From: an uncultured Bacteroidota bacterium
GTDB lineage: Bacteria > Bacteroidota > Bacteroidia > Chitinophagales > LD1
DNA: 64,000 nucleotides
Reading direction: 5' to 3'
Assembly (NCBI GenBank): GCA_903861145.1
Contig: CAIOTH010000046.1
Coordinates: 658-64,657, forward strand
The notes beneath the pieces are model-generated. The model was not told where the DNA came from, did not search any database, and was given only the letters and a program-made list of their open reading frames with translations. Positions within the stretch are counted from its first letter, which is position 1; every line of letters begins with the position of its first letter. Below are positions 47,355 through 64,000 of the stretch, in pieces. A program made the position numbers and the translations under genes.

Positions 47355-49055
47355 ATGAGTCCATCTAAAAATAAATCATCGTTGGTTTTATCCTTTTTAA
47401 AAAGAGGGCGCACATGGATATTGCTTGTGGTAATTGCTGTAGGCTCTATGTCGTTTGCCGATTACTATTTCGAAATTTCGAAGAACATCGATATTTTCTC
47501 GTCACTTTTTAAAGAGGTAAATACATTTTATGTAGATGATGTTGAGCCTTCAAAACTAATGCGCACCTGCATTGACGGGATGCTGAAGACACTGGACCCC
47601 TTTACCAATTACTTTTCCGAATCGCAGATTGAGAATGCCAGGATACAACAGGGAGGCAAGTTTGGTGGCCTCGGTATTGAAATTGAAATTATGAACGGAT
47701 ACCCGGTTATTACTTCAGTAACCCAAAACCAGCCGGCCGATAAAAGTGGTTTAAAGGTGGGTGATGTTATTAAAGGTATTGACGGTAACCCCACTGAAAA
47801 GCGGACCAAGGAAGAAGTAAATAAAATATTGATTGGCGAACCCAAAACAAAGGTTACACTGCAGATAGAAAGGAAGACATCGTTGTTTGATACCAAACAG
47901 CAAAGTTTTTTGATTGCGCGTGAAGAAATACAGGAAACAAATGTTCCGTTTTACGGTATGGTTTCGCCGGAGGTGGGTTGTATTAAGCTAAAGATATTTA
48001 ATGAGCATGCAGGCCGTGATGTAAAACAGGCTTTTGATAGTTTAAAACGTGCCACTCCTAATATGAAAGGGATTATTCTCGACCTACGTGGCAACCCCGG
48101 TGGCTTGTTGAATGAGGCAGTTAATATTGTAAATATATTCGTCAGCAAAAATCAACTGGTAGTAAACACGCGTGGTAAGGTAGATGAGTGGAACAATACT
48201 TTTAAAACGGTTGACGAACCAAGCGATACAGCCATCCCTATCGTTATTATAGCAAATTCGGGTTCGGCATCAGCTTCCGAAATTGTATCAGGCACCATTC
48301 AGGATTATGACCGCGGCGTTATTATTGGGCAAAGAACTTACGGCAAAGGCCTGGTGCAGATTACGCGTAACCTTAGCTACAACACCATGCTTAAGGTTAC
48401 TACAGCCAAATATTATATACCTACCGGCCGCTGCATACAAGCCATTAATTACGCCGAAAGAAATGCAGACGGAAGTGTTAAGCATATTCCCGATTCATTG
48501 AAGGTCGCCTTCAAAACTATTAATAAGGGTAGGACAGTTTATGATGGCGGGGGTATTGACCCCGACCTGCAACTGACCTTGCCCGAGGCAAGTAAACTGG
48601 TTGACAAACTGATTTCACAAAACTACATTTTCGAATTTGCTACCACCTACAGCATATTACATACAAGCATTGACGATCCGGCAAAATTCAGGTTGAGCGA
48701 TAAGGACTTTGATGATTTTGTAGCCTACGTAAAATCGAAAGACCTTTCGTACAAAACAGAAAGCGAAGAAAAATTGGATGCACTTAAAGATGCTTCGACC
48801 GAAGAGAAATATTTTGATGCTTTAAAGGAGCAGTACGAAACCATTAAAAAGAAACTGGCCCATGATAAAGGGCAGGATATCATCAAAAACAAAAGTGAGA
48901 TTGTTACCCTGCTTGAAAATGAAATTGCCGGCCGTTACTATTATGCTTATGGCCGTGTAAAAAAGGGCAATCAAAACGATATAGAGGTAGCCAAAGCGAT
49001 TGAACTGATTAACAACCCCACTAAGTATAACGAGTTGTTGACCGCTAAAAAATAA
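47355..49055 (+). CDS. S41 family C-terminal processing peptidase (tandem paralogue)
   Basis: Same block order as the upstream gene (DLRGNPGGLLNEA, SGSASASEIVSG, TYGKGLVQ, TTAKYYIPTGRCIQAINYAERNADGS). Confidence 0.85.
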   Translation: MSPSKNKSSLVLSFLKRGRTWILLVVIAVGSMSFADYYFEISKNIDIFSSLFKEVNTFYVDDVEPSKLMRTCIDGMLKTLDPFTNYFSESQIENARIQQGGKFGGLGIEIEIMNGYPVITSVTQNQPADKSGLKVGDVIKGIDGNPTEKRTKEEVNKILIGEPKTKVTLQIERKTSLFDTKQQSFLIAREEIQETNVPFYGMVSPEVGCIKLKIFNEHAGRDVKQAFDSLKRATPNMKGIILDLRGNPGGLLNEAVNIVNIFVSKNQLVVNTRGKVDEWNNTFKTVDEPSDTAIPIVIIANSGSASASEIVSGTIQDYDRGVIIGQRTYGKGLVQITRNLSYNTMLKVTTAKYYIPTGRCIQAINYAERNADGSVKHIPDSLKVAFKTINKGRTVYDGGGIDPDLQLTLPEASKLVDKLISQNYIFEFATTYSILHTSIDDPAKFRLSDKDFDDFVAYVKSKDLSYKTESEEKLDALKDASTEEKYFDALKEQYETIKKKLAHDKGQDIIKNKSEIVTLLENEIAGRYYYAYGRVKKGNQNDIEVAKAIELINNPTKYNELLTAKK

Positions 49056-49127
49056 GCCTTCCCTTAATCCATACAATTACAACTGCGTATTTAGCGGTAA
49101 AGAACCTATTTGTATTAATTTTCAGCC

Positions 49128-50525
49128 ATGATTACCAGCGATACTATTGTTGCGCTTGCTACGGCACCCGGTGTGGGGGCTATTGGCGTTATCCGCTTAT
49201 CGGGCCCACAGGCAATTGAAATAGTTGAAAAGGTTTTTAAAGGGAAAAACCTTACGCAACAAAAATCGCATACCATTCATTACGGCCATATTATTGATGA
49301 TGAAAAGATATTGGATGAGGTAATGGTAAGCCTGTTCCGTGCGCCCAAAAGTTTTACTACCGAAGATGTGGTTGAAATATCTTGCCATGGCTCTCCGTTT
49401 GTGGCCGAGCAAATTATCAGGTTGTTGATTCAAAAAGGTGCCAGGTCAGCTAAGCCCGGTGAGTTTACTTTGCGCGCTTTTATGCATGGCCGTATCGACC
49501 TTTCGCAGGCCGAAGCTGTGGCTGATTTAATAGCTTCTTCATCCTCAGCATCTCAACAATTGGCCCTGCAACAAATGCGCGGTGGTTTCTCTAACCAAAT
49601 AAAAGACCTACGCACCCAGCTACTCAACTTTGCTTCGCTGATTGAATTGGAGCTTGATTTTTCGGAAGAGGATGTGGAGTTTGCAAACCGCGAACAGTTA
49701 ATTGCACTAATAGACAGGATACAGCACCTACTTAAACCTTTAGCTGAATCTTTTAAGCTGGGTAATGTTATTAAGAATGGCGTTAACACTGTAATTGCCG
49801 GCAAACCCAATGCGGGTAAATCAACCTTGCTGAATGCACTACTGAACGAAGAGCGTGCTATTGTTTCTGAAATTCCTGGCACCACGCGTGATACGATTGA
49901 AGAGGTGATGAACATTAACGGTATCCAGTTTCGGTTTATTGATACTGCGGGTATAAGGGTTACAACAGATGCAATAGAACAGCAAGGAGTTGAACGTACG
50001 ATGGAAAAGCTACGGCAAAGTGCAGTTTACATTTATTTGTTTGATGTAAACAAAACTACGCCGCAAGAACTGCTACAAGAGCTTAAAGAATTGGAGCTAC
50101 TAGGCTTTAGCGGCCTTATTGTGGGCAACAAAATAGATAAGGCCAACTGGAAAACCACGGCGCCGTTTTACAGCGCCATTGAATTTTCAAAAGGCAAGCA
50201 TCATTTTCCCGAAATCATGTTTGTTTCAGCCAACACACATTACAACCTGCCATTGTTTAAAGAGAAGCTTTATCAACTGGTAACCAGTTCGGCGAAAGTA
50301 GGTTCGCAGGATACGATTATAACTAACCTGAGGCATTATGAAGCTTTAGTTAAAGCCAGCGAGGCTTTAAGCCTCGTTAAAACCGGCATCGAAAATCAAA
50401 ATACCGGCGAGCTGGTAGCATTTGATATTAAACGGGCGCTTGAATACCTGGGTGAGATATCGGGCGAGGTTACTAATGATGAAATATTGGGAAACATATT
50501 TTCGAAGTTTTGTATCGGCAAATAA
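49128..50525 (+). CDS. mnmE: tRNA uridine-5-carboxymethylaminomethyl modification GTPase
   Basis: DTIVALATAPGVGAIGVIRLSG, G1 GKPNAGKSTLLNAL, DTAGIR, NKID and the invariant C-terminus FCIGK. Confidence 0.95.
   Translation: MITSDTIVALATAPGVGAIGVIRLSGPQAIEIVEKVFKGKNLTQQKSHTIHYGHIIDDEKILDEVMVSLFRAPKSFTTEDVVEISCHGSPFVAEQIIRLLIQKGARSAKPGEFTLRAFMHGRIDLSQAEAVADLIASSSSASQQLALQQMRGGFSNQIKDLRTQLLNFASLIELELDFSEEDVEFANREQLIALIDRIQHLLKPLAESFKLGNVIKNGVNTVIAGKPNAGKSTLLNALLNEERAIVSEIPGTTRDTIEEVMNINGIQFRFIDTAGIRVTTDAIEQQGVERTMEKLRQSAVYIYLFDVNKTTPQELLQELKELELLGFSGLIVGNKIDKANWKTTAPFYSAIEFSKGKHHFPEIMFVSANTHYNLPLFKEKLYQLVTSSAKVGSQDTIITNLRHYEALVKASEALSLVKTGIENQNTGELVAFDIKRALEYLGEISGEVTNDEILGNIFSKFCIGK
50508..50525 (+). 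repeat. attL core (last 5 codons plus stop of mnmE, preceded by Phe codon)
   Basis: TTT TGT ATC GGC AAA TAA. Partner at 59940-59957. Confidence 0.7.
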
Positions 50526-50692
50526 TTTCTTACATTTTCCGTAATTTTACGTCATTTTCCATCATTTAACACAAAAAACATTCATTTTTTGTTGTTTTTG
50601 GTCAATTTTTATTTTTAGATTTGTTACGATTTGTTGCTCGCGGCTGATGCAATGTTGCTCAAATGTGGTCAAATAAATTTTAACAATAATAA

Positions 50693-50719
50693 TGCACCAT
50701 TCTGCACCAATATGCACCA
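50693..50719 (+). promoter_or_regulatory. three exact TGCACCA heptamers at 10-bp spacing (candidate arm-type or operator sites)
   Basis: TGCACCA at 50693, 50703 and 50713, which is 21-47 nt upstream of the first element gene (ATG 50740). Confidence 0.5.
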
Positions 50720-50739
50720 ACTAACCACATCAAGCTACA

Positions 50740-51111
50740 ATGAGCAGTAATCTAAGCCTTCCCAAAACCTGTCAGCATTGTGGCAAAGCCTTTATTGCAC
50801 AGAAATTTTCAACTAAATATTGTGGGCATCCTTGCGCGGCTCGCGCTTATAAACTCCGAATGAGGCAGGATAAAATTAAGGATGCCGTAAAAATGCAACA
50901 TTATGTTTTGCAGGACAGCACATCCAACATAGGTGCTTCTTCAACGAGCGTGTATAACAAGGAGTTTTTGAGTTTAAAAGAGGTCGCCCTACTGTTGGGG
51001 GCAAGCCGTTGGACAATTCAGCGCTTAATAAAAGCTAAAAAACTGACTGTTGGAAAAGTCGGGAGAAGGACAATAATTAAACGTTCAGAGATTGATAACC
51101 TATTTAAATAA
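50740..51111 (+). CDS. zinc-ribbon plus excisionase-type helix-turn-helix DNA-binding protein
   Basis: N-terminal CQHCGKAF...YCGHPC (C-x2-C...C-x3-C). C-terminal LSLKEVALLLGASRWTIQRLIKAKKLTVGKVGRRTIIKRSEIDNLF fits the excisionase/MerR-like HTH_17 type. Immediately upstream of int. Confidence 0.65.
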   Translation: MSSNLSLPKTCQHCGKAFIAQKFSTKYCGHPCAARAYKLRMRQDKIKDAVKMQHYVLQDSTSNIGASSTSVYNKEFLSLKEVALLLGASRWTIQRLIKAKKLTVGKVGRRTIIKRSEIDNLFK

Positions 51112-51118
51112 ATATTAT

Positions 51119-52225
51119 ATGACAATCACATTAAGACAAAGAATTAGACCAAAAAGAATTAGTCTCTACCTTGAATACTACGAAAACGGCAAGCGCACTT
51201 ACGAAAACTTGCCTATTCATTTGATTGCAGGCGACAACTTAACAGCCGAGCAAAAGGAAAGAAATAAGCAGGAACTTGAAACGGCAGAATCTATTGCGAC
51301 AATCAGAAAAGGAGACATGCTTAAAGGCAGGTTCGGCATAAAGGATACCAAAAAGCTGAAAGGAAGTTTTATAAAGTATGCTGAAATGCTTGCTGAGAAA
51401 AGAAGAAGAAATAAGAATAACTACCAAAATTGGTTGAGCGCCCTGCGGCATCTCAAAGCATTTTGTAAGGAAATTACTTTCGCCGATATAAACAAAAAAT
51501 GGCTTGAAGACTTTCGCGCTTACTTGCAAGAGGAAGCAGTAAAGCCAAATGGCGAACCGTTAGCGCCAAATTCTCAATCGTCATATTTTAATAAGGTTCG
51601 GGCGGCTATTAAAGAAGCCTTTATGGATGAAATTCTGCTACACAACCCCGCCGAGAAGGTTGAACCTATTAAGGGAGAACAATCGGAGATGTGCTATCTT
51701 ACCGAAGAGGAGGCACAAAAGATGGCGGATGCAGAATGCGTCTCGCCTGTTTTAAAACGAGCATTTATGTTTGCTTGTGTAACAGGGTTAAGATATTGCG
51801 ATATTGAAAAGTTAACTTGGTCGGAATTGCATATACATGAAGAAGGCTGCAACATTCACTTCCGCCAAAAGAAAGTTCAAGAGCAGTTTCTGATTCATCC
51901 ATTTAAAATTGACTTCATACACCTCTTAGGTGAAAGGGGCAACCCTGACGACCGCGTCTTTCAAGGACTTTATTATGGACTTACAAGGAGTCCGAAATTT
52001 GATAATTGGGTCAAAAAATCGGGGATTAATAAATCGCCCACGTTCCATTCGTCAAGGCACACCTATACCTGTATCCTTCTTAACAAGGGAGTGGGTATTT
52101 ATGTGGTATCTAAAATGTTGGGACATAAAAATGTTGCCACAACGGAGCGAACTTATGCTCATATAATACCTAAGACGAAGCAAGACGCTGCCAATCAGAT
52201 TGACCTTAAATTTGGGACACGGTGA
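51119..52225 (+). CDS. int: tyrosine-type site-specific integrase
   Basis: N-terminal ITLRQRIRPKRISLYLEYYENGKRTYE (Bacteroidota integrase arm-binding type). Catalytic blocks GLRYCDIEKLTW (R), HSSRHTY (H-x-x-R) and LGHKNVATTERTYAHI (H...Y). Confidence 0.9.
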   Translation: MTITLRQRIRPKRISLYLEYYENGKRTYENLPIHLIAGDNLTAEQKERNKQELETAESIATIRKGDMLKGRFGIKDTKKLKGSFIKYAEMLAEKRRRNKNNYQNWLSALRHLKAFCKEITFADINKKWLEDFRAYLQEEAVKPNGEPLAPNSQSSYFNKVRAAIKEAFMDEILLHNPAEKVEPIKGEQSEMCYLTEEEAQKMADAECVSPVLKRAFMFACVTGLRYCDIEKLTWSELHIHEEGCNIHFRQKKVQEQFLIHPFKIDFIHLLGERGNPDDRVFQGLYYGLTRSPKFDNWVKKSGINKSPTFHSSRHTYTCILLNKGVGIYVVSKMLGHKNVATTERTYAHIIPKTKQDAANQIDLKFGTR

Positions 52226-53133
52226 TTAAGGATATGCGATTTTGGCAACGCCATTACGCACAACAATTTAAATATATAGTCGAAATTTACTTCAAAGATG
52301 AGGACGAGCTCTTCCTTCGGTTTATCAAAGGGCTTGCTGATGTCCATGCCCAATACGCTTTTGCTAAGAGCCAAGTAATATCGGATGAAGGCGAAGTCAA
52401 GATTGACAATAATTTTCTGTATGAAGTATCTGCAATTGTAGGGGAATATATTTTGGAGTTTCTCCAACAAAATCCATCTTTTGATACTCCACTGAACGGG
52501 AGAAAACTTGCAAAATTTCAGAGAGCAATAATCCATGAATATTATGCGGATGAGAAGATGCCCGCAACAAAAAGGTTGCAAATACTTGAAAGTTCCCAAA
52601 CGGCACTGTCTGATTATTGGTCAATAGAAATGGGTAGCATCCCATTTGGTATTGCGGAGCAATTTGATTTTATGCAGGCTAAGATAGATTCGCTCGGACG
52701 GAATGCGGAACAGATTGCTTCCGAACCTGATTTAATGTTTTGGGAATTCGGTTTTCAAAATCTTAGGCTGCTTGAGCAGAAATTGAAAGGTCTTCCCGCC
52801 CCTTTATTGGAAATAAATTCCAATTTGATTCCATTGTTCTCCAATCATATTGTGAATGATGCTCAAAAGGCAAATTGGAAAGGAGACCAAGTAGCCTTGA
52901 TATATATGTTATATAAAATTGCAGGAACAAAAATGAAAATCAACAATCAAAGCATCTATGAATTTGTTAGTGGACGCTTTACAGTCAAAGGCAAAACCGT
53001 TACCGCTAAAAATTTATCCTCCTCCTTAAACATGTTAATTAATGATTTCCTTTTGAAGAAAAATCGAGCCGATATACTGCCTCCGTCAATTATAACGATT
53101 GACCAAATTTTAGCATATCTCGATATTAAATAA
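52222..53133 (+). CDS. hypothetical protein of the element
   Basis: 303-aa ORF overlapping the int stop (GTG at 52222; alternative ATG at 52234). No firm motif. Confidence 0.5.
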   Translation: MIKDMRFWQRHYAQQFKYIVEIYFKDEDELFLRFIKGLADVHAQYAFAKSQVISDEGEVKIDNNFLYEVSAIVGEYILEFLQQNPSFDTPLNGRKLAKFQRAIIHEYYADEKMPATKRLQILESSQTALSDYWSIEMGSIPFGIAEQFDFMQAKIDSLGRNAEQIASEPDLMFWEFGFQNLRLLEQKLKGLPAPLLEINSNLIPLFSNHIVNDAQKANWKGDQVALIYMLYKIAGTKMKINNQSIYEFVSGRFTVKGKTVTAKNLSSSLNMLINDFLLKKNRADILPPSIITIDQILAYLDIK

Positions 53134-53281
53134 CAGGCGCGTCTCTTTCCAATATAATTCCAATATAATTCCAACTGCAACACCCCCTTCCGATTGGGCG
53201 TGATTTATTTTCGTGGCAGGTTTTAGCACATTCAGTAATTGCTTCAACCATATTACAAATACGCTTAAATATATCACCGCC

Positions 53282-53656
53282 ATGAAGAAGGAAAAGGCTT
53301 TTAACCACGAAGACAAAGAGGAAAGCTTGATTGCAGTGTTGAACCGAGTTGAACAAAAAATAGACCTGCAAAATATCCTCTTAAAAAATGTCTATGACAT
53401 AAAGCGAGCCGCCTCTTATTGCAATATAGCTGTAACCACATTGCATAAATTAAAGGACAATAAAAAAATTAAATATTCGCAACCAAACGGCAAAGGCACT
53501 ATGTGTTTTTTCAAGAGAGAGGATTTAGATAGTTACATGTTATCTAACCCAATTGAAACTTCCGAGGACATTACGAACAAAATAGCTGAAAGTGAGAGAC
53601 GCGCGGCGGATTATGTGAACCTGAACCCCGCTAAATATATGCGCGGGAAGAAATAG
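53282..53656 (+). CDS. excisionase-type helix-turn-helix DNA-binding protein
   Basis: VYDIKRAASYCNIAVTTLHKLKDNKKIKYSQPNGKGTMCFFKREDLDSYM fits the HTH_17/excisionase pattern. Start set at MKKEKAF. Confidence 0.6.
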   Translation: MKKEKAFNHEDKEESLIAVLNRVEQKIDLQNILLKNVYDIKRAASYCNIAVTTLHKLKDNKKIKYSQPNGKGTMCFFKREDLDSYMLSNPIETSEDITNKIAESERRAADYVNLNPAKYMRGKK

Positions 53657-53762
53657 GAGAGGTATTCGTAGAAGAAACAAAATGTGAAGTTGGGAAATTC
53701 GAAGCTTTTTCCTTGAATCTCAGTGTGCCCGCTCGAACCCCGAAATTCAAAAATAAATTATC

Positions 53763-54539
53763 ATGGAAATTCCTGTTCAATTAGAAACACAATACGAGAA
53801 CGGTGTCAGATACTTTCATTACGAACGGATTTCAATTGCTATATACGATGGTGGTTTGGTCGTTGTGATAATTGATGACTTTAAGCATCCTGATGGAAGG
53901 CGATTCGAAAAACTTATTGTGCTCTTCCAAGAAAGCCCGCCGCAAAAGGGACGACCCAAAAAGAAACTGATAACAAAATGCCCTGTAAACGAAGGTCGCG
54001 ACTATTTAATCTGCACTGTTCCGAACATTACTGCAAAGGAAATATCATCAGGTAACACTTGTGTCCCTGCCATTGAAGTGCTTGCAGCTTACGAAGAGTT
54101 TATCAACCATGCCTCTCGGTTCGATTGGGATTTCTTTATAGTTTTTACGTCGCATAAGTATCTCTCAGTTAGCAGATGCATATGGATTATGGAAAGGATG
54201 CGGAAGTCGCTGAGGGCAGCAGGCTCGCAAAATATGTATTGGGTAGCCGAACGATTCAACGGTAAAGAAGGTAGACATATTCACCTGTTGCTTGACATGA
54301 AAGGTCAAGGCGCAGATAAGTATGTCTTCGATTTGTGGCAAGGCTTGTCGGGCGCGAAAAAGGATAAAACGTCTGCTGTGGTTTATATACAGCCATACAA
54401 AAAAGAATTAAATGCAGGACACTACTTGACGAAGGAAATATTTACTATGAGCGATTATTATGATTTTGATTTTGCCGAAGTGGGGGAACAAATTAATGGA
54501 GGTCAAGAAAACCTGTGTTCGGCTTTGCCGAAGGAATAG
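53763..54539 (+). CDS. candidate HUH-superfamily rolling-circle replication initiator (Rep)
   Basis: Three blocks in Rep order and spacing: FFIVFT (aa 124-129), RHIHLLLD (aa 171-178, His-hydrophobic-His) and GHYLTKE (Y221-x-x-K224). Confidence 0.5.
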   Translation: MEIPVQLETQYENGVRYFHYERISIAIYDGGLVVVIIDDFKHPDGRRFEKLIVLFQESPPQKGRPKKKLITKCPVNEGRDYLICTVPNITAKEISSGNTCVPAIEVLAAYEEFINHASRFDWDFFIVFTSHKYLSVSRCIWIMERMRKSLRAAGSQNMYWVAERFNGKEGRHIHLLLDMKGQGADKYVFDLWQGLSGAKKDKTSAVVYIQPYKKELNAGHYLTKEIFTMSDYYDFDFAEVGEQINGGQENLCSALPKE

Positions 54540-54880
54540 AAGCAGAAGTAGCGCAATTGTAAATTAATTAGGAGGGAAATTCTTTCAATAAAAAAGGTCG
54601 AATAAAATGGATGAATTAGAGTCCAACGGAAACATGGTCGCCATCATGGCGCAATTAGCCTTAGTAGCAATGGCAATAGGCATAGCATCGCTGTATATCG
54701 AAAGCGGAAATGCGAAGCGGAAGTGATGACGCGCGGGCGGAATTACCGAAGGATTGCCGAAGAAATGGAATTAGCATCTGAATTTAATATCCTTCGGCAA
54801 ATTAATTAGCAGGAAATAAAGAGCCGAGTAAAAACCTTGTTTGTGTAAAGAGCGTTTGCCGAACAAATACCGAAGGAATC
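54525..54880. repeat. iteron/hairpin region downstream of the Rep-like gene (candidate ori or res site)
   Basis: TTGCCGAAGGAAT at 54525, CCGAAGGAT+TTGCCGAAG at 54746-54762, inverted ATCCTTCGGCAA at 54789-54800, TTGCCGAAC at 54856 and ACCGAAGGAATC at 54869. Confidence 0.55.
54607..54726 (+). CDS. possible 39-aa hydrophobic peptide
   Basis: Own translation: MDELESNGNMVAIMAQLALVAMAIGIASLYIESGNAKRK. One TM segment. Coding status unproven. Confidence 0.25.
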   Translation: MDELESNGNMVAIMAQLALVAMAIGIASLYIESGNAKRK

Positions 54881-54883
54881 AAA

Positions 54884-54894
54884 GGGGGGGGGGG
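54884..54894. repeat. G11 homopolymer tract
   Basis: Eleven consecutive G residues, 45 nt upstream of the 54939 ORF and 261 nt upstream of the serine recombinase gene. Confidence 0.9.
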
Positions 54895-54938
54895 TGGAAT
54901 TCAAAATCAATTATGCAAAAAATTAAAACCTAATTAAA

Positions 54939-55136
54939 ATGGACGACAAAGAAAATGAAGGCTTAAAAGATGTTCTCCTTGAGTTCTACGACTCGCACAA
55001 GAGGCTAATACTTACCGTTGGGACAATTATAGGAACGATTGGTCTTGTGTATGTTTCGGGCAAGATTTTCAAAGTCGTTGCAAAAACGGCGAATGATTTT
55101 AAAGACATGCGCTCAGCGTTGAAGCGTAAAGTATAA
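54939..55136 (+). CDS. small single-pass membrane protein
   Basis: 65 aa with an acidic N-terminus, one TM segment (LILTVGTIIGTIGLVYV) and a basic tail. Lies 18 nt upstream of the recombinase gene. Confidence 0.4.
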   Translation: MDDKENEGLKDVLLEFYDSHKRLILTVGTIIGTIGLVYVSGKIFKVVAKTANDFKDMRSALKRKV

Positions 55137-55154
55137 ACGGAAAAATTTTTACCG

Positions 55155-55805
55155 ATGAAAAACTCAGTGATATATATACGGACTTCCACAGATAAGCAGA
55201 CTCCCGAATTGCAATTGCGGGACATATCTTCTCTTGAGCCGCCCAACGATGCAATCATTTTAGAAGAAACGTTGTCCGCTTGGAAGGAAAACGTTGTCCG
55301 ACCTGCAATTATTAATCTGAGGGATATGATTAAAGTGGGCAACGTCAGCACACTCTACGTTTGGCATTTGGACAGACTTTATCGCAATAGGAAACGGCTA
55401 ATTGAGTTTTTATCACTTTGTAAAGTTCAGGGTGTAAAAATTTGCAGTTTCAATCAAAAGTGGCTCGATGCCATACAAAGAATGCCTGAGCCGTTCAATG
55501 AAGCCATGTTTGATTTTATGCTGCAAATTTTGGGATGGATGGCAGAAGATGAGTCGAAGACCAAATCGGAAAGAGTGAAGATGTCTGTGCGAGAAACTGA
55601 AAAAGGAACATTCTCATACAAGGGAAACAAATGGGGACGGAAGGCGTTACCGAAGCAAACAGAAAACCGAGTGCTTGAACTTTATGCTGAGGGTAAATCT
55701 ATTCGTGCAATAGCCGCGCAAGTGCAAATTTACGATGGCAACAAAAATGGTCGCCCCATATCTAAAAGCGCTGTCCACAAAATCATAGCAGCAAATCGGG
55801 CTTAA
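55155..55805 (+). CDS. small serine recombinase (resolvase/invertase family)
   Basis: VIYIRTSTDKQ (catalytic Ser11), LYVWHLDRLYRN (the DRLxR block) and a C-terminal HTH (LELYAEGKSIRAIAAQV). Confidence 0.9.
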   Translation: MKNSVIYIRTSTDKQTPELQLRDISSLEPPNDAIILEETLSAWKENVVRPAIINLRDMIKVGNVSTLYVWHLDRLYRNRKRLIEFLSLCKVQGVKICSFNQKWLDAIQRMPEPFNEAMFDFMLQILGWMAEDESKTKSERVKMSVRETEKGTFSYKGNKWGRKALPKQTENRVLELYAEGKSIRAIAAQVQIYDGNKNGRPISKSAVHKIIAANRA

Positions 55806-55904
55806 AAAGGTAGTAAATTATCAAGTCCAGGAATTAGTCAATTAAAGGACAGGAGAAATAGGTCAGTCGAAATATTTTTAAATTCATCACTTAAAACACA
55901 TCAA

Positions 55905-56111
55905 ATGAAAACTAAAGAGGAAAATCTGAAATGCACCAAATGCGGGTATGAAGACAATATAAGCTCATGGCACGAGAGGCAGCAATATGATAGCGACGGG
56001 CATTACCCGCCAAGTATTCAAGGCGTGAGTCCTGAATACACTCTTTGCCCTGAATGCGGCAGCTTCCTACATGTAGATTATGACTTAGACGAAGTGGGTG
56101 AAGGCGAATAA
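55905..56111 (+). CDS. small zinc-ribbon protein
   Basis: 68 aa with CTKCG ... CPECG pairs and an acidic tail. Confidence 0.45.
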   Translation: MKTKEENLKCTKCGYEDNISSWHERQQYDSDGHYPPSIQGVSPEYTLCPECGSFLHVDYDLDEVGEGE

Positions 56112-56155
56112 TCCCGATAAGGTTTAGCACAGCCTATGAAAGTTACGCATAGGCA

Positions 56156-56362
56156 TTATTTTCCGAATAATCTCTTTAGCATACCGAGCAGACTAAAAGA
56201 AGTTCGGTCATACACTCGGTTGTATGCGGCTTTATTCGGATTCGTTAACCAACCCCATCCCCTCGGCGCTCGAATGCCCAACGCGTTTTTTATAATTCGC
56301 TTTGGCGAGGTGCGGGCGCCAATCATTCGGCTAAGTGAGGGCTGACGGAAACCAAATTTCAT
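56156..56362 (-). CDS. small basic protein
   Basis: 68 aa. The block SRMIGARTSPKRIIKNALGIRAPRGWGWLTNPNKAAYNRVYDRTSF resembles, from memory only, a small basic protein family I associate with phages and mobile elements. Preferred over the overlapping plus-strand ORF. Confidence 0.45.
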   Translation of the reverse strand: MKFGFRQPSLSRMIGARTSPKRIIKNALGIRAPRGWGWLTNPNKAAYNRVYDRTSFSLLGMLKRLFGK

Positions 56363-56505
56363 ATTAACGTAGTTTTTTAATTGCCAATTAATTCGACCTG
56401 AATTTTTTCAAAAATTAAATAAAATTAAATCGGAATTTATTTCTTGCTATTCTGATTATTGATTTCCTATTTCGTCCTTTTAATCTGACATAAATATAAA
56501 AGGAC

Positions 56506-56943
56506 ATGCGGAAGAACAGTATAATTTTGAAGCCCACGTATAAGTATAAGCTCGCGGATAGAATCGAAATATCCATGATTGAGTTCGAAGCAGAGCAATT
56601 GCGAATTGATTTTATAGCTAAGCCCGATTTGCTGTATGACTACGCATGGTGGATTAATATTGAATACCGAACGTTCATTCAAGTAACGGGCACTAAAATA
56701 AGATTGCCAATGTGCGAAGTCGCAAATATTCCTCTCGCGCCGAATAAATACTACTTCGAGACCAAAGATTCCGAGCTTAAATATTCCCTATATTTTATCC
56801 TTCCGCCATCAAGCGCAAAGCGAATTGACATTATCGAAAAAGAATGGGGAGGTAATAACTCTTTTAATTTCTACGGCGTTGCATTGTCGGACAGTCTTCC
56901 GCATCCTTTATTCGAAGGCGGCGTTAAGCTTGAGCTAAACTAA
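56506..56943 (+). CDS. hypothetical protein of the element
   Basis: 145-aa ORF with no recognisable motif. Confidence 0.45.
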   Translation: MRKNSIILKPTYKYKLADRIEISMIEFEAEQLRIDFIAKPDLLYDYAWWINIEYRTFIQVTGTKIRLPMCEVANIPLAPNKYYFETKDSELKYSLYFILPPSSAKRIDIIEKEWGGNNSFNFYGVALSDSLPHPLFEGGVKLELN

Positions 56944-56986
56944 ACATCCATTGCGGATTTGTAAATATTCTAAATAAAAGGAGTGT

Positions 56987-57364
56987 TTAAATATCTCCAA
57001 ATTTTTCTTGATAGCGAAGCAAAGCTTCTTCCTTGTCCTTGAGCAGTTTTTCAAGAAGAAAAACCTTGTCTTCGTATAGCTTCTTCATTTCCTTCGACAT
57101 GTCGGTTATAATTATGCCATTATTGTTGCCTTTAATATTAGTTTGACTATTGAAGAGCTTCTGTTGGTCAAAGGCTATCAACTCTTCAACGCTAACACCT
57201 AAAACCTTTGCAATCTCTTCAAGCTTTGCGAACGTTACATCAGTTTCTCCGCCCTCAATTTTACTGTAACCCGCTTGAGTTATATGCAGCTTCTTCGCCA
57301 TGAACTCTTGAGTATAGTTTCTAAGCTCACGGATGTTCTTGATTTTGGTTCCTAACTTATTCAT
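56987..57364 (-). CDS. XRE (Cro/CI) family transcriptional regulator with C-terminal coiled coil
   Basis: IKNIRELRNYTQEFMAKKLHITQAGYSKIEGGETDVTFAKLEEIAKVLGVSVEELI is a canonical HTH_3 domain. Confidence 0.85.
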   Translation of the reverse strand: MNKLGTKIKNIRELRNYTQEFMAKKLHITQAGYSKIEGGETDVTFAKLEEIAKVLGVSVEELIAFDQQKLFNSQTNIKGNNNGIIITDMSKEMKKLYEDKVFLLEKLLKDKEEALLRYQEKFGDI

Positions 57365-57487
57365 GGGACATGTATTGGTTTATAAAATATAACGCATGCG
57401 ACTAAACAACAACTAAGTAAAGGATTTTTCAAACACTAAAGATGTTGCTTTGCGAAAATATTTTTCAAACCCCATAAAAAATTTAGT

Positions 57488-58015
57488 ATGAAAAAAATGT
57501 CCTCCTTGTTTTTGCTGTTAATGAGCGTATTGCTAATGACAGTTTCTTCGTGTTCTAAAAACGATAGCTGTCCAAACGGATTTACAGGCTCTAATTGCTC
57601 CCAACAAAAAAACCCTGTTCAAATTCAGGTTACTAAAGTAACTGTTACAAATTTTCCCTCAACAAGACTTGATGGCACTGATTGGAATTTGACTGAGTCT
57701 GCGGGACATGCCGACATCTATCCTACAATTGCGGATTCAAGTGGTAACGTGGTTTTTACCTTCCGCTCGGTATATCTATCGAATGCAAGCAACGCAAATA
57801 ATAATATTTTTACTCTAAGCACTCCTATCATTCTTTCAAATCCGTTGAGTTCTTACACGTTTACTTTATTTAATTGGAATAGCGTAGCCGCCGATGACAA
57901 CATGGGTTCAATTACAAAAATAATTTACAACAGTTCCAATAATTTCCCTACAACCATAAACCTTGATAATGGCGCAGGGCTTACCTTTCAGTTAACTGTT
58001 CAATACGTTTATTAA
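57488..58015 (+). CDS. lipoprotein of unknown function
   Basis: Lipobox VSSC followed by CPNGFTGSNC (a short EGF-like loop). The rest is beta-rich. Confidence 0.55.
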   Translation: MKKMSSLFLLLMSVLLMTVSSCSKNDSCPNGFTGSNCSQQKNPVQIQVTKVTVTNFPSTRLDGTDWNLTESAGHADIYPTIADSSGNVVFTFRSVYLSNASNANNNIFTLSTPIILSNPLSSYTFTLFNWNSVAADDNMGSITKIIYNSSNNFPTTINLDNGAGLTFQLTVQYVY

Positions 58016-58091
58016 AGAAATATTCTCTAAGCATAATGGGCAACGGTAAGAAAGCAAAATCGCTTTCAATAGCCGTTGCCCATTTTTATTT

Positions 58092-58487
58092 CTATAAGCA
58101 ACGCCTCAATTCGGCTGCTTTGATAAATTCAATCAGGCTGTTATCTACATCAAATGGCAACTCCCCTCGGTCATAGTAAGTTTTTATGATGGTGTATTTG
58201 CATGGTTTATCATAGTCCTCCATATGCTCCGATAATGGTCTCGGCTTTCTTTGTCTGCTTTCCGCATAGACAAGTATTTTACTCATTCGCACATCTTCGG
58301 ATAAAAAAGCTACAACAGCTTCCTCCCATTTGCTCAGAAGCAATTGGCGTTCTTTTATTGGGTTTGACTCTACGAATTGTTTGTATTCAAGTATCTTTTT
58401 TAGAGACCTTTCTTGCTTAGGAAAAAGATGGTAAAGGTCAAAAAAATCCAAGCCTAAGTTGTATAGGAATTTCTTAATTATCATCAT
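58092..58487 (-). CDS. hypothetical protein, divergent partner of the HEPN-motif gene
   Basis: 131-aa ORF with no recognisable motif. Shares a 154-bp intergenic region with the 58642 gene. Confidence 0.45.
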   Translation of the reverse strand: MMIIKKFLYNLGLDFFDLYHLFPKQERSLKKILEYKQFVESNPIKERQLLLSKWEEAVVAFLSEDVRMSKILVYAESRQRKPRPLSEHMEDYDKPCKYTIIKTYYDRGELPFDVDNSLIEFIKAAELRRCL

Positions 58488-58641
58488 GCGTCTAATTTGT
58501 TATCCAATATATTCCATAAAACCGAAGAAGCCCAATTCAGCTAAAAAAATTATGATAAATTATTTTTTACTCGAATTAGCTATTAAATTTCGCACGAAAT
58601 TCAAATCGCAAAAAATTATCTAATTACCAAAAAAAACCATA

Positions 58642-59571
58642 ATGTATATAGACTTTCATAAGTATAACTACGACCTTGTATCAGCCACCGATAAGCAGGG
58701 CTATATTGACCGTGACAAAGAATCTTACAAGTCCGTGCTTCGAAAATGGCTTGAAGATAATTTAAATGACATCGTTAATAGGAAATGGGAAGTGGAGGAG
58801 ATATATTTCCTTAAAGACGTTAGCGATTTTATTAAACTATTGCGCGAAGCTGAAACGATTTATGAATTAGGCTTTTATACGAGTTGCATTGCACTTATTG
58901 GAGTATCAGCGGAAGATTTTAGCAAATTTTTATCCATTAAAGTTGGGCAGGCGGCGTATGCTGAGGAGAAGCAGTGGCGAAGATTGAAATTGCTATTGGA
59001 TAATGGATATATCACACAAGCGATATTTGACCTTTTAGATAATATAAGGGAGGTTAGAAACGATTGTTTACACTATGACCAAGATTTTAAGCAAAAGACC
59101 GATGCCGAATTGAAACAGGACAGTTTAACTGTGCTCAACAACCTGAAAAATGTCCTGAAAATAACAATCGGGCTGACGGGCTCTTTTGACAAAGAAGGTC
59201 TTTTAGAAATTATTGAGGAAATCAGTTCGACAACTACGGATGCGCGAAATTTCGATGAGGTTCAGGTTAAAATTAAAAATGCTGTATCCCATCTCTTAAA
59301 GTTTCCTATTGCATTTAACCCGCAGGAAAAATTTCAGGTTCGGTTTAAGTCCTTTGAAGTGGTAGGGATTGACGATGATGAAATTACTTTGAAAGAACTG
59401 CCCTCTCAACTTCGCGTTTTTGTGGAACTTCCGCAAGCAGCTAAAGACTTAATTGACGCTAAAGGCATAGCGGCTGGCGATGTTGTATTCGCTTCTATTT
59501 ATTCAATTGTAGATGCTAATGGTATGACCGCTGAATGGAATTTGCTTGACATTCAGAAAACCGCTGCGTAA
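58642..59571 (+). CDS. HEPN-motif protein (DUF4145/Abi-like helical domain plus unknown C-terminal domain)
   Basis: Helical block LLREAETIYELGFYTSCIALIGVSAEDFSKFL, then DNIREVRNDCLHYD with R139-N-D-C-L-H144 (the R-x4-H HEPN motif; nt 59056-59073). C-terminal about 130 aa unassigned. Confidence 0.5.
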   Translation: MYIDFHKYNYDLVSATDKQGYIDRDKESYKSVLRKWLEDNLNDIVNRKWEVEEIYFLKDVSDFIKLLREAETIYELGFYTSCIALIGVSAEDFSKFLSIKVGQAAYAEEKQWRRLKLLLDNGYITQAIFDLLDNIREVRNDCLHYDQDFKQKTDAELKQDSLTVLNNLKNVLKITIGLTGSFDKEGLLEIIEEISSTTTDARNFDEVQVKIKNAVSHLLKFPIAFNPQEKFQVRFKSFEVVGIDDDEITLKELPSQLRVFVELPQAAKDLIDAKGIAAGDVVFASIYSIVDANGMTAEWNLLDIQKTAA

Positions 59572-59939
59572 AATCAATGGAAGTTCGGGTTTAGTCAGTT
59601 TATTTATTAAGCCTCAAAATCTAATTTAACACCGTTAAGCTCCCTTGCATCATGTTAGTGTGTAATTGAGCTAAAAATGGCTTCAAAATCGTTTTGGCAA
59701 TTGATTTGAGCTTAGGTTGGGGTTTACATTCCAACAAATCTTCTAAACATAGCATTTGGTTGAGGATAAAGTTATGGTGCGCCTGCACAATGAATCAGCG
59801 CAATGCTTGGCTTTTACTATGCTCCGCAAATTTGCTGAACATCACTTTTTATTGGTGTGGGATTACTTTTTATCGCGGATTTTGTTGCTCATTTGTTGCC
59901 CGAAACGCTGAAACCCTTGATAATACAGGGGTCTTCACT

Positions 59940-59957
59940 TTCTGTATCGGGAAATAG
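59940..59957 (+). repeat. attR core (orphan copy of the mnmE terminal 18-mer)
   Basis: TTC TGT ATC GGG AAA TAG encodes F-C-I-G-K-stop. It differs from 50508-50525 only at three codon third positions. Confidence 0.7.
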
Positions 59958-60192
59958 CGCCTATTAATCAACCAATCCACTCACGTCATATTGAATGGCT
60001 TACTGCAGCATAATGATGAAGAGCCTCGCTTTCTATTCTGCCAACTATAAATGGTTCAATTGTAATTCATGGCAAATAGCTGCTAGTGCATGGCTTCGAA
60101 AATTGATGCCATTTATCATGTTCTGTGCTGACCATATTCATGACCAGGGATTTACGGAGCATTTATTTTTGCTTCATTAAAATCAAAATAAT

Positions 60193-60609
60193 ATGAGTAA
60201 AAAAATATCGGTTTCAGGCGTGATGACTCCGCATGTTATTGTAGCCAACGTAAACACCAGGTTTGCCGAGATAGAGGAGTTTTTTGATAATTATAATATC
60301 CAACACTTGCCTGTGGCCGAGGGGGATCGTTTAATTGGCATTGTAAGTATAAACGACATGATGAAGTATATATTTAAAAAGCTGAAAAGCGGAACGGCAT
60401 TTAATCAGGCTTCGCTTGCCGCAACTTTTGATTTGAAAGAGATAATGACCACAAACCCTGTTTGCGTAAATCCGGATGATGATTTTTCGAAAGTGGTTGA
60501 TATTTTAGCACAGGGCAAATTTCAGTCGGTGCCTGTTGTTAAGGATGGCCTAATTGTGGGTATCATTACCAATAAAGATGTGGTAAGGGCTTATCAACAG
60601 CTCATGTAA
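60193..60609 (+). CDS. CBS-pair domain protein
   Basis: Two CBS repeats (MTPHVIV...HLPVAEGDRLIGIVSINDM and MTTNPVCV...SVPVVKDGLIVGIITNKDV). Confidence 0.85.
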   Translation: MSKKISVSGVMTPHVIVANVNTRFAEIEEFFDNYNIQHLPVAEGDRLIGIVSINDMMKYIFKKLKSGTAFNQASLAATFDLKEIMTTNPVCVNPDDDFSKVVDILAQGKFQSVPVVKDGLIVGIITNKDVVRAYQQLM

Positions 60610-60699
60610 AGCCAGTCAGTTTTACATATCTGAAATGTGCGAGAAGATATTCATGTTTTTTTCACAACTTCGTGAAAGTATTGTGTAAAATATAACTTC

Positions 60700-60897
60700 A
60701 TGAAAAAACTTCTTACCATAATTATTCTGACGGCAATGATTGGGCTTTCCTCGTGTAAACAGGATTGGGTGTGCCAATGTATGGACAATAATGGCAACGT
60801 TACCAATACGCCCATTAACGGCGGAACTTTTATTCATGCCGAGCATGCTTGCCACGGAATGGGTAACAAATGCGATTTACTAACTGAGGGACGCTAA
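60700..60897 (+). CDS. small cysteine-rich lipoprotein
   Basis: Lipobox GLSSC. Five further Cys residues in 45 aa. Confidence 0.4.
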   Translation: MKKLLTIIILTAMIGLSSCKQDWVCQCMDNNGNVTNTPINGGTFIHAEHACHGMGNKCDLLTEGR

Positions 60898-61177
60898 TTT
60901 GCACATTGCGGGGCTGAAGGACACGAAGCTTACCCTGGCGGGAATTCTGGAAAGATATTCGAAGCTTTATAAAAGTAATTGGCCTGCTTAATTCTCTTTC
61001 GGGGTTTGCAGTAAAATCCTTATCCCGCAGCTTTGGTTTTTATAAGGTTATGGCTTGTAGTAATTTCCGCTACATATATTTCATCATTGCTACTACATTT
61101 TATGGTAAACCTATGGTGCAATTTTGTCCTTGTGTCAGCAAAGGAACTTTCTCTCATCCCTGAGAGAGGTGCCAAGT

Positions 61178-61209: not shown

Positions 61210-61462
61210 GCCCTTTATTTCCGGGTAATGATAAATTTCATAACTCTTTTTTACAGGTATATCTATGTTCGCTTTTTGGTTATCGCCTAAGGTATCGGGG
61301 CAATTAACGCATTTCAATGCAGTGCCACGGTAACATAAGGCGGTAAGCATTAGCTAAATAGCAAATAGACCTGGTTATTGAATCACTTTATAATTATTTT
61401 AATATTCAGGAGAATAACATAACTTCACACAGGTGCAAAATTATAAAGATAAATATTGGAAT

Positions 61463-64000
61463 ATGAAAAAGGGACTAATAGGTTTAATTCTTGCATTTTG
61501 CGGATTCAATACCTGTATGGCACAGGCGCCACAGGACATGAACTACCAGGCAATTGTGAGAAATGCTTCGGGACAGGTTTTACCCGGCGGCCAAACGGTT
61601 TCATTGCGCTTTCAAATTCATGACGGCTCACCCACGGGTACAGTTGTTTTTCAGGAAGTCGCTTCTGCGGTAACTAATCAGTTCGGACTTGTGACCCACA
61701 TAATAGGCAGTGGCTCAAACCTGGCCACTGTAAACTGGGGTACTGGCCCTAAATATCTTCAGATTGAATTAGACCCTGCCGGAGGAGTTAGTTACGCAGA
61801 TATGGGTACTTCGCAATTGATAAGCGTTCCTTATGCGTTGTTTGCTGCCAATAGTGAGCCCGGACCCTCAGGTCCAACAGGTAGCAATGGAAGCAATGGA
61901 TTAAACGGGGCAACCGGGATAGCCGGAGCGGCCGGTCTTAACGGGGCTACAGGAGCAACGGGGGCTACAGGAAGTAACGGCGTAATTGGCCCAATAGGGG
62001 CAACCGGGGCAATTGGTGCTACAGGTAATGCCGGCGCGGTGGGAGCTACAGGACCAGCAGGAAATAATGGATTAAACGGAGCCACCGGAGCTCCGGGTTA
62101 AACGGCAATCGCGGTTTTACGGGTGCCACAGGTGCAACCGGAGGTAATGGAATAGATGGTGAAACGGGTGTTACAGGTGCAACCGGGAGTGCCGGAAACA
62201 GGGGCGCCACAGGCGCATCGGGCATAGATGGAGATATTGGCCCAACCGGAAGGGCCGGAACAACCGGCGCAACAGGAAATGTTGGGGCCATCGGAGCTAC
62301 GGGTTTTACCGGTAATGTTGGAGCAACGGGCGCAACCGGCATTACGGGTGCCACAGGATTTACAGGTGATGTTGGGGTTACGGGGGCGATTGGTGCCACC
62401 GGAGCTACGGGCTTTACCGGTAATGTTGGGGCAACGGGCGCAACCGGCATTACAGGTGCCACAGGATTTACAGGTGATGTTGGGGCTACGGGGGCTATTG
62501 GTGCCACCGGAGCTACGGGCTTTACGGGTAATGTTGGAGCTACCGGCCTTTTATCGGCGGGAACAGCAATAGGGAATACAACGTATTGGGATGGTACTCA
62601 GTGGGTGTTGAGTAGTAATAATATATACAACGACAATGCCAATGTTGGTATTGGTACAGCATCGCCGGGAGAGAAACTTACGGTGGTTGATCCGGCTAAC
62701 TTAAATCAATACAATGGCACGTTGGGTATATATGCTAATAATCTTACTGAAGGTATAGGTATAGGCTACATGGGAATTCAGGCAGTGGGTTCTAATGCCA
62801 GCCAGGACCTTTCATTTAACGCAAAGGGCACGGGTAATATCACAATGCAGGTTAGCAGAACTACAGGAAATGTGGGTATTGCAACGGGAAACCCGCTTAC
62901 ACCACTTGATGAAAATGGAGTAATTAATTCGGCAACCGGCTATGAGATTGCCAATGGCGCAGCGGCTGGAAACTACCTAAGGGGTAATGGAACTAACTTC
63001 GTTTCATCGGCAATTCAGGCGGCCGACCTACCCAGTGGTAACGGGAATTATATTCAAAACAGAACCTCTATTCAGCCCACCTCAAATTTTAATATCAGCG
63101 GAATAGGGTATGCACAAGGTAGCTTGCAGGCACCTGTATTTTATGATCTTAGCAATACAGCATACTATGTGCAGCCTTCATCAACAAGTATATTAAACAA
63201 CGTGCGTTTTAATAGTGCCGATTGTTTGAATGGCAACTGCCCCACTAACGGGGCCATACGTTACACACCCAACTTTTATCTTAATGCTGTTAACGGAAGC
63301 GCGGTTTTGATTAACTGGGATAATGGAACAACTGCGGGTGCCAATACCAAGCAACTACGTGTTGGAACCGGGCAAGCCGCTGACGCTTTTTATGTTACTT
63401 CGGCGGGTAATACGTTTGCCAGTTATTTTAACTCAACTGATAACACAGTTAGCAGTGGTGTAACCGGTGTAATGGTTAAACAAGGCGATAATTATATAAG
63501 GACCGCTAATGCCTCGGCTTTGGCCAGTTTTGTTGTTCCAGGTGCTTCGTCTAATGTTAGTAAAGTAGGATATAGCGCTGGCCCTACGGTGTATCAGTAT
63601 ATTCCTTATAATGCTTCGGCCCAAACGCCTATAAGTGGTTCAACAAATACTGTGGCGATGGCCGCAAGTGGCAATATATTGCTTGTTGCTAATGTTACCA
63701 TTACTGCTGGTGATGGAACTAACGATATTATTTATTCCGGTCCGGAAGACTTTGGAAATGGTAACACTGCACTTGCCGGAGATGCCTCGTATAGAATTGA
63801 AGTACAAAGGTCTCCAAATAATTCAAGCTGGACTACTGTTATGACAAGTTCAGCACACTGCGGAATGCAGGTACCGGATGCTAATAATTTTTATGCAACA
63901 ACTGGCTCGGGTTCGCAAAATGATGCAGGCGTTTTTGGTGACAGGTATAGTTTTCCGGGAAATGTTTCGATTAATTATATTGACCCTGTAACCACTGGAA
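61463..64000 (+). pseudogene. collagen-like (G-X-Y) tail-fibre-like surface protein, split by a 1-nt frameshift at about 62095-62101; 3' end beyond the window
   Basis: Signal peptide MKKGLIGLILAFCGFNTCMAQA. G-X-Y triplets run from about 61860 to the TAA at 62099-62101. They continue without interruption in the -1 frame from 62101 to about 62545. A non-collagen domain ([16 protein letters not shown]...) is then open to position 64000. Confidence 0.7.
62296..62547 (+). repeat. 108-bp tandem repeat (about 2.3 copies) inside the collagen-like region
   Basis: Units start at 62296, 62404 and 62512 (GCTACGGG(T/C)TTTAC(C/G)GGTAATGTTGG...). Each encodes 12 G-X-Y triplets. Confidence 0.85.

Follow-up and report, generated by a model that had tools for sequence, protein, structure and literature searches.

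The recognition of DUF4145 as a HEPN family dates from 2013, when it was described with numerous fusion partners and with links to restriction–modification (R-M) loci (Anantharaman et al., 2013; PMC3710099). The partners described there include restriction endonuclease, superfamily 2 (SF2) helicase, Sel1, zinc ribbon, transmembrane, SH3, UvrD, TIR, sigma-HTH, DpnII-NTD and AbiJ-NTD1 domains (PMC3710099). RAZR (PD-T7-4) pairs a zinc ribbon, to which ring-shaped phage proteins bind, with a DUF4145 HEPN domain that cleaves single-stranded RNA (PMC13017515). DARNA (PD-T7-3) joins an N-terminal Rx4H HEPN domain to an all-alpha C-terminal domain that binds single-stranded DNA (ssDNA) presented by SSB, the ssDNA-binding protein of the phage; this binding switches on cleavage of tRNA anticodon loops, the active sites being formed by HEPN dimers (10.64898/2026.02.22.705581). 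The BREX-associated phage defence protein BxaP has an N-terminal DUF4145 domain and a HEAT-like helical C-terminus (PMC10799925). Ishtar (ist1/ist2) of Acinetobacter baumannii is a monogenic anti-plasmid system that causes loss of plasmid RP4; its N-terminal HEPN domain (DUF4145 or DUF3644) is followed by a C-terminal domain built from three helices and either five or seven strands, and it is patchily distributed, near defence genes and in integrons and satellites (10.64898/2026.07.06.735840). Single-protein HEPN immunity, as in RAZR, DARNA and Ishtar, has been worked out only recently, and each of the three uses a different accessory domain for recognition. Here we describe a gene for a HEPN protein of 309 amino acids (aa), located at the end of an integrative element in a 64,000-nucleotide stretch (the window) of contig CAIOTH010000046.1 (assembly GCA_903861145.1) from an uncultured Bacteroidota bacterium, and compare it with these systems.

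We believe that the 309-aa gene is probably a stand-alone, single-gene immunity candidate, in which a predicted HEPN RNase is combined with a putative OB-like sensor domain and which is carried as cargo of the element. The first-pass annotation of the window, made from the sequence alone, had offered two options, a single-protein sensor-effector or a two-gene module shared with a divergent 131-aa ‘orphan’; the former fits the absence of any conserved neighbour in 23 loci that carry a homologue. The open reading frames (ORFs) and the motif R139-N-D-C-L-H144 are present where that annotation had placed them, and the start codon of the 309-aa ORF is confirmed by the near-invariant N-terminus MYIDFHKYNY of its homologues. 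The protein matches PF13643 (DUF4145) over residues 69–156, on model positions 2–81 of 88, with 22.7 bits (E = 1.1e-4; gathering score 23.1), and Pfam also gives a weak AbiV-HEPN match; the HEPN-type matches returned by PADLOC, to Csx1/Csm6 and Cas13a, are all weak. Scanned singly, 54 of 71 relatives match PF13643 at E ≤ 1e-3 (best E 5.6e-9). The assignment to DUF4145-type HEPN domains, proposed earlier from the overall pattern of the sequence, therefore holds at the level of the family, although the 309-aa protein taken alone is borderline.

The family was assembled by a homologue search that covered 5.8 billion proteins, and comprises at least 207 protein clusters at 40–56% identity, mostly with 98–100% coverage, lengths of 305–340 aa and identities of 44–56%. 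Where its members have names these are ‘DUF4145 domain-containing protein’ or ‘hypothetical protein’, and many had already been annotated with PF13643. Conservation was measured in a 71-sequence alignment, in which R136, R139, N140, C142, L143 and H144 are invariant; in a set of 29 sequences in which the motif was also checked, R139, N140, C142, L143 and H144 are invariant likewise. The two residues on which the catalytic reading in the first-pass annotation depended, R139 and H144, are thus retained throughout. Many positions in the first 58 residues, including the extreme N-terminus, are invariant or nearly so in the 71 sequences, and the C-terminal invariant positions are N213, S216, D244, E247, S288, G294 and W299. 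Given a HEPN domain of the DUF4145 type with an intact, invariant Rx4H signature, the protein most likely acts as an effector by metal-independent cleavage of RNA, carried out by a HEPN dimer.

An AlphaFold2 model of the 309-aa protein, built from the 71-sequence alignment, has a mean pLDDT of 87.7 and a pTM of 0.75. The region that had been judged all-helical from its sequence, residues of about 60–175, is modelled as a HEPN bundle, helical over residues 62–175 (helices 62–75, 79–100, 126–143 and 154–175, with pLDDT > 90), the Rx4H motif lying where helix 126–143 ends. The N-terminal 60 and C-terminal 130 or so residues had been said to match nothing recognisable. A sequence search of PDB chains with the family profile found nothing; on the model, the C-terminal region does have a recognisable fold and is best described as two helices followed by an OB-like barrel. 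Strands 231–243, 247–253 and 258–262, helix 265–273, and strands 281–290 and 296–306 follow one another in the canonical OB-fold order, b1-b2-b3-helix-b4-b5. Both Foldseek lists, against PDB and viral models, are topped by OB folds and HEPN proteins alone. The top OB matches are the eIF5A C-terminal domain, the LysRS anticodon-binding N-terminal domain, TM0957, the mitochondrial SSB Rim1, cold-shock domains, Stn1/Ten1, SSB of phages and proteins of the tRNA_anti-like kind (target-normalised TM up to 0.60–0.68); the HEPN matches are 2hsb (target TM 0.57), 1ylm and 3c18, at E of about 0.03–0.08.

The OB-like domain was examined for the basic and aromatic character of nucleic-acid-binding domains, and this is absent; the barrel is acidic across the family, with a net charge of −6 in the 309-aa protein and a family mean of −8.6 (range −15 to −1). 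The domains differ in how well they are conserved, mean identity to the 309-aa protein being 61% for the N-terminal segment, 59% for the HEPN domain, 43% for the linker and 40% for the barrel. The N-terminal segment is therefore the best-conserved part, with a role that may lie in dimerisation or regulation, and variability is greatest in the barrel. Sensor-effector immunity proteins usually have a conserved effector linked to an accessory domain that evolves fast.

When one GTDB genome per species was scanned, homologues at 40–53% identity were found at the 23 loci referred to above, in Bacteroidota, Cyanobacteria (Nostoc, Okeania, Microcoleaceae), Paenibacillus, Cohnella, Methylomonas, Cellvibrionaceae, Desulfovibrio and an Akkermansia metagenome-assembled genome (MAG). 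The family is thus patchily distributed across phyla, which is indicative of horizontal transfer. When all ORFs of the 23 loci were clustered all against all, no neighbour family proved to be shared beyond closely related cyanobacteria, and in a census of 118 neighbours from these loci no family occurs in more than four members. Judged by this clustering, the HEPN–OB gene is without a conserved partner and stands alone. Neighbours in the census include MkoA/MkoC, SIR2-HerA, a DRT UG14 reverse transcriptase, a ThsB-like TIR protein, subunits of type I methylase and specificity type, DUF3800 (three times), ParE, nSTAND NTPases, resolvases and integrases.

An association with known defence genes, which the first-pass annotation had proposed to check, is seen as a raw count in six of the seven annotated contexts outside the window. 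In Ekhidna, a resolvase and a CD-NTase/patatin CBASS pair lie within 2 kb of the homologue. The Flavobacterium caseinilyticum homologue adjoins DUF3800, with a SMODS/E2/NUDIX CBASS system 5 kb away, and that of Fodinibius adjoins YaaC, followed by AbiEii/DUF6088 and a Gabija-like pair of OLD-TOPRIM and UvrD proteins. One further homologue (context L036) adjoins PIN_12, with DUF4238 and AIPR also present, and another (L038) has an XRE regulator, two MmeI-type R-M enzymes and a Piwi protein (pAgo) nearby. In a Cryomorphaceae MAG (L027:3634-11953, identical to L003), the homologue is embedded in a type I R-M operon, the gene order being hsdM, DUF4268, hsdS, homologue, hsdR; the place between hsdS and hsdR is also that of prrC in the prr locus of E. 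coli.

Database models of defence proteins do not name this family. NCBIfam has no model for it, and matches in NCBIfam and PHROGs are all below threshold (the HEPN region of DS11_antiphage, the HsdR N-terminus, AbiV and an ‘abortive infection resistance’ PHROG). No named-system model of PADLOC is matched by the 71 family members at E ≤ 1e-3. The PADLOC candidate model PDC-M16A gives weak matches in 15 of the 71 (best 2.2e-7); we read these as the signal common to HEPN domains and rejected membership of the family in PDC-M16A.

The element that carries the gene was delimited by comparison with an empty site. An exact look-up of the CBS protein encoded beyond attR identified three contigs in which mnmE is directly followed by the CBS gene. 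One of these, contig L035, matches the window at 48579–50524 (99.95%) and at 59940–60919 (99.9%), with 17 bases used twice, and the three-way alignment gives attL as TTTTGTATCGGCAAATA, attR as TTCTGTATCGGGAAATA and attB as TTTTGTATCGGGAAATA. The element is thus about 9.43 kb long (50508–59956) and is inserted in the last codons, at the 3′ end, of mnmE. A generic direct-repeat search had missed the att sites because of mismatches at 2 of the 17 core positions. Contigs L024 and L025 carry the element, and L035 and two further contigs lack it; it is mobile, being carried by some members of the population and missing from others that are otherwise 99.9% identical. It encodes a tyrosine integrase, two HTH_17 excisionase-like proteins and a serine resolvase, and 50508–59956 contains no conjugation or phage structural genes. 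No tRNA gene is present, and the window as a whole has no match to any Rfam family, RNA antitoxins and other RNAs near the HEPN gene having been sought in that scan. The empty-site comparison also upheld the earlier view that the HEPN gene is the last cargo gene before attR, as no other convincing gene lies from 59571 up to attR. The 368 bp between its stop codon and attR (59572–59939) contain only overlapping short ORFs, 55 and 87 aa long, and match nothing in Rfam; arm-type integrase binding sites may lie there.

Coordinates of the HEPN gene, its predicted domains, the host element and neighbouring features (positions in the window)
Feature	Position	Strand	Basis
309-aa HEPN(DUF4145)-OB protein gene	58642..59571	+	ORF, homologue N-termini, Pfam, AlphaFold
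Residues 1-58, conserved N-terminal segment with long helix 15-50	58642..58815	+	alignment, AlphaFold
Residues 59-176, HEPN/DUF4145 helical domain	58816..59169	+	Pfam, AlphaFold, Foldseek HEPN matches 2hsb, 1ylm, 3c18
R139-N-D-C-L-H144 codons, Rx4H catalytic signature	59056..59073	+	sequence and alignment
Residues 177-221, low-confidence loop (178-181) and linker helices 184-196 and 204-219; N213 and S216 invariant	59170..59304	+	alignment, AlphaFold
Residues 222-309, OB-like five-stranded barrel (b1-b2-b3-helix-b4-b5)	59305..59568	+	AlphaFold, Foldseek
Divergent intergenic region, 154 bp, AT-rich; may hold the promoters	58488..58641	.	
131-aa gene, helical N-terminal half, lineage-restricted	58092..58487	-	relatives, structure model
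mnmE	49128-50525		precomputed contig annotation
attL core TTTTGTATCGGCAAATA, overlapping the last mnmE codons	50508..50524	.	empty-site comparison
HTH_17 excisionase-like gene	50740-51111		annotation, Pfam
Tyrosine integrase of the element	51092..52225	+	annotation, Pfam
Several genes of no recognised function	between tyrosine integrase and serine resolvase		annotation
Serine resolvase	55155-55805		annotation, Pfam
p145, XRE regulator, 175-aa lipoprotein-like ORF, 131-aa gene, HEPN gene	in this order after the resolvase		annotation
attR core TTCTGTATCGGGAAATA, 368 bp past the stop codon of the HEPN gene	59940..59956	.	empty-site comparison
CBS-pair gene, beyond attR	60193-60609		annotation

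The 131-aa gene diverges from the HEPN gene. A word-indexed search with its product returned only the protein itself, and two relatives (P0122 and P0123), 48–50% identical to it over the full length, emerged when 1.84 billion representatives were searched exhaustively with phmmer; the ORF is therefore a real gene and no strict orphan, contrary to the first-pass annotation. Its model is of moderate quality (pLDDT 69), with a helical bundle at residues 1–80 and a poorly predicted C-terminus, and Foldseek found no structural match to it. The contigs of the two relatives (L031 and L033) contain no HEPN gene. In both, the relative faces, in convergent orientation, a homologue (51% identity) of p145, the 145-aa protein of window ORF 56506–56943, and L031 (1728–4882) contains in addition a second p145 paralogue and an XRE regulator. 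The 131-aa gene thus keeps company with the p145/XRE neighbourhood rather than with the HEPN gene, and together with p145 it may form a small conserved cassette. The 175-aa ORF was considered as a conserved partner of the 131-aa ORF and rejected (BLASTP E = 3), the conserved neighbour being the p145 family. By these comparisons the 131-aa gene is an unrelated neighbour of the HEPN gene.

A scan of 57900–60200 for sigma-70 promoters and terminators performed no better than on shuffled sequences, its consensus being unsuited to Bacteroidota promoters. Between the convergent 175-aa and 131-aa genes, at 58038–58090, lies a terminator-like hairpin (GGGCAACGG...CCGTTGCCC, then a T-run), whose long loop kept it off the list of the consensus scan. 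Just after the resolvase, a 68-aa ORF (55905–56111) has two CxxC pairs, as in a double zinc ribbon, and many weak zinc-ribbon matches in Pfam. Outside the element, at 61433–62600, there is a gene with collagen-like Gly-X-Y repeats, with long mirror ORFs on the opposite strand and a local rise in GC to 0.52. One family member found elsewhere (P0118, 492 aa, on a JGI contig of 5036 bp) has the N-terminal segment and HEPN domain duplicated in tandem, followed by a single OB-like domain; RNxC(L/F)H is kept in both copies, an arrangement that recalls two-HEPN enzymes such as Cas13 and that is consistent with HEPN–HEPN pairing.

How might such a protein work? We propose that a HEPN dimer would supply the RNase, and that the acidic, fast-evolving OB-like barrel would be a sensor or regulatory domain, or a gate over the active site, acting perhaps together with the conserved N-terminal helix. 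The sensor would keep the RNase silent until it bound a cue derived from an invader. Since the barrel is acidic, this cue is more likely to be a phage or plasmid protein, or a protein–nucleic-acid complex, than naked nucleic acid; our confidence in any specific trigger is much lower than in the overall interpretation. Activation would lead to the cutting of cellular RNA, invader RNA or both and would stop translation, so that infection would be aborted, growth arrested or the invading element lost, in keeping with what has been shown for RAZR, DARNA and Ishtar. The protein might act on phage, in line with RAZR and DARNA, or, in line with Ishtar, on plasmids and competing mobile elements.

Rather speculatively, and with considerable doubt, we suggest that the family could represent an uncharacterised class of single-protein immunity, possibly serving in exclusion between elements, in which the acidic OB-like barrel is a decoy or sensor whose binding unleashes the HEPN RNase. 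In a decoy form, the barrel could, for example, be a nucleic-acid mimic that is bound by the ssDNA-binding, replication or transfer proteins of a phage or plasmid; alternatively, it could be an intramolecular plug over the RNA groove of the HEPN domain. As the HEPN gene rides on a small integrative element, it could, on this reading, also be a weapon between mobile elements, used for anti-plasmid or anti-phage exclusion. Such trigger logic for the barrel would differ from that of RAZR, in which the zinc ribbon binds phage rings, and from that of DARNA, in which a helical domain binds ssDNA.

Several observations weigh against an immunity protein of this kind. The 309-aa protein scores 0.4 bits below the Pfam gathering score for PF13643. 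Its model has no Foldseek match at E ≤ 1e-3 in PDB and viral models, so that topology and a consistent set of weak matches are the basis of the HEPN and OB fold calls; the HEPN fold predicted in the first-pass annotation is thus seen in the model and lacks a significant structural hit. A tblastn search with the family matched nothing in the sequenced plasmid and phage collections, context L037 has no recognisable defence gene, and the defence neighbours mentioned above are raw counts. Sensing of ssDNA in the manner of DARNA, or of RNA, is doubtful because the OB domain is acidic.

Among other explanations, it seems exceedingly unlikely that the locus is a two-gene toxin–antitoxin (TA) or addiction module, in which a HEPN toxin and a divergent 131-aa antitoxin or regulator stabilise the element. 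The two genes are indeed adjacent at the end of a mobile element, divergent across 154 bp, and HEPN toxins are common in TA systems (PMC3710099); nevertheless, no relative of the 131-aa protein lies beside a HEPN homologue at any of the 23 genome loci or on any of the 7 annotated contigs, its only two relatives lie beside other genes, PEMT-like and p145-like, with no HEPN gene near, and a divergent, non-operonic layout is atypical for type II TA pairs. As the two do not co-occur in either direction, we rejected the 131-aa ORF as HEPN partner or antitoxin, and the two-gene module of the first-pass annotation falls with it. The same annotation had noted that no minimal nucleotidyltransferase (MNT) antitoxin is adjacent, and we agree: the neighbours are the 131-aa helical protein, which matches no family, and the CBS-pair protein beyond attR, which leaves the HEPN–MNT type without its second gene here. 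A guard of the PrrC kind, that is, a latent HEPN RNase restrained by a type I R-M enzyme and freed when a phage inhibits restriction, would account for the Cryomorphaceae homologue between hsdS and hsdR, for the sub-threshold match to the HsdR N-terminus and for the LysRS anticodon-binding OB domain among the top Foldseek matches, and R-M genes are repeatedly found fused to DUF4145 domains or encoded alongside them (PMC3710099). We consider it very unlikely, however: R-M embedding is seen in only one of about 30 contexts, the element in the window has no R-M gene, the 309-aa protein has no PrrC-type ABC-ATPase domain, and the LysRS matches are weak (E about 1e-2) and generic for the OB fold.

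A role outside immunity, as an RNA-processing or regulatory factor for the element or host, or as a HEPN protein that only binds, is unlikely in view of the patchy distribution across phyla, contexts that differ from locus to locus, the heavy representation of defence neighbours and the invariance of the catalytic R and H, even though HEPN domains also act in RNA maturation (PMC3710099) and L037 would suit such a role. That the protein is a distant member of Ishtar, acting mainly against conjugative plasmids or competing elements and leading to loss of the element rather than to abortive phage infection, is possible, if rather doubtful. Both consist of a single gene that lies near defence genes and on mobile elements, they have a very similar layout, and the host element of the HEPN gene could gain from excluding rivals. 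By sequence, however, we could not place the protein in Ishtar, whose authors accept homologues at E < 1e-5 with coverage > 70%. Against 19 Ishtar homologues, hhalign aligned only 24–28 columns around the catalytic helix, with a probability of 2–8%, one comparison of the family alignment giving 28 columns at 2%; taken domain by domain, the C-terminal domains gave E values of 0.3–0.9 and the HEPN domains E = 0.004 over 24 columns. In addition, the Ishtar homologue table (Table S3) contains none of the signature strings of the 309-aa family.

If immunity is indeed the function, the HEPN–OB family adds to this field a compact, well-conserved and widely scattered architecture, consisting of an N-terminal helix, a DUF4145 HEPN domain and an acidic OB-like barrel, that is named in no defence catalogue. 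The locus also offers a clean natural experiment, the same chromosome being available with and without the 9.4-kb element. Should the OB-like domain prove to be the sensor, its trigger would reveal another way of coupling recognition of an invader to RNA cleavage; should it not, the gene would be one more DUF4145 accessory gene.

The family has the Pfam domain and the R-M locus link of HsdR and other DUF4145 fusions, and an OB-like partner is not among the fusions listed in PMC3710099. Like BxaP, it combines an N-terminal DUF4145 domain with a different C-terminal domain and is linked to other defence systems; BxaP is bound to BREX loci and has a HEAT-like C-terminus, whereas the 309-aa family is without a fixed partner system. 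From PrrC it is set apart by features already weighed, the window element lacking an R-M gene and the protein an ATPase domain. The first-pass annotation had seen no correspondence to a named defence family, which is true of the PADLOC models and needs qualifying in that Ishtar, RAZR and DARNA follow the same logic.

With RAZR the 309-aa protein would share single-protein abortive infection, by a DUF4145-type HEPN RNase effector and a separate small sensor domain for phage proteins. The sensor of RAZR is an N-terminal Cys4 zinc ribbon, whereas the 309-aa protein has a long N-terminal helix and a C-terminal OB-like barrel; a zinc ribbon is absent from it because its only cysteines are C82 and C142. 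The catalytic spacing differs as well (R146..H154 in RAZR, R139..H144 here), and the PADLOC model for PD-T7-4 matches neither the protein (E ≤ 1) nor its 71 relatives (E ≤ 1e-3). DARNA likewise has an N-terminal Rx4H HEPN domain and an extra C-terminal domain, in its case the sensor, in one polypeptide. That domain has about 300 residues and is all-alpha, Pds5-like and ssDNA-binding, in contrast to the acidic beta-barrel of about 88 residues in the 309-aa protein; there is no sequence match to DARNA, and no PADLOC match to PD-T7-3 for the protein or its 71 relatives. Resemblance to Ishtar, RAZR and DARNA is thus one of architecture and not of detectable sequence. Ishtar is shorter (164–263 aa), is without the conserved 58-residue N-terminal segment, and has the motif RNxxEH where the 309-aa protein has RNDCLH. 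Its layout is nevertheless the closest of all and very similar, a single gene with an N-terminal HEPN domain and a C-terminal beta-rich domain, because residues 184–306 of the AlphaFold model hold five strands and three helices, as against the five or seven strands and three helices in the published description of Ishtar.

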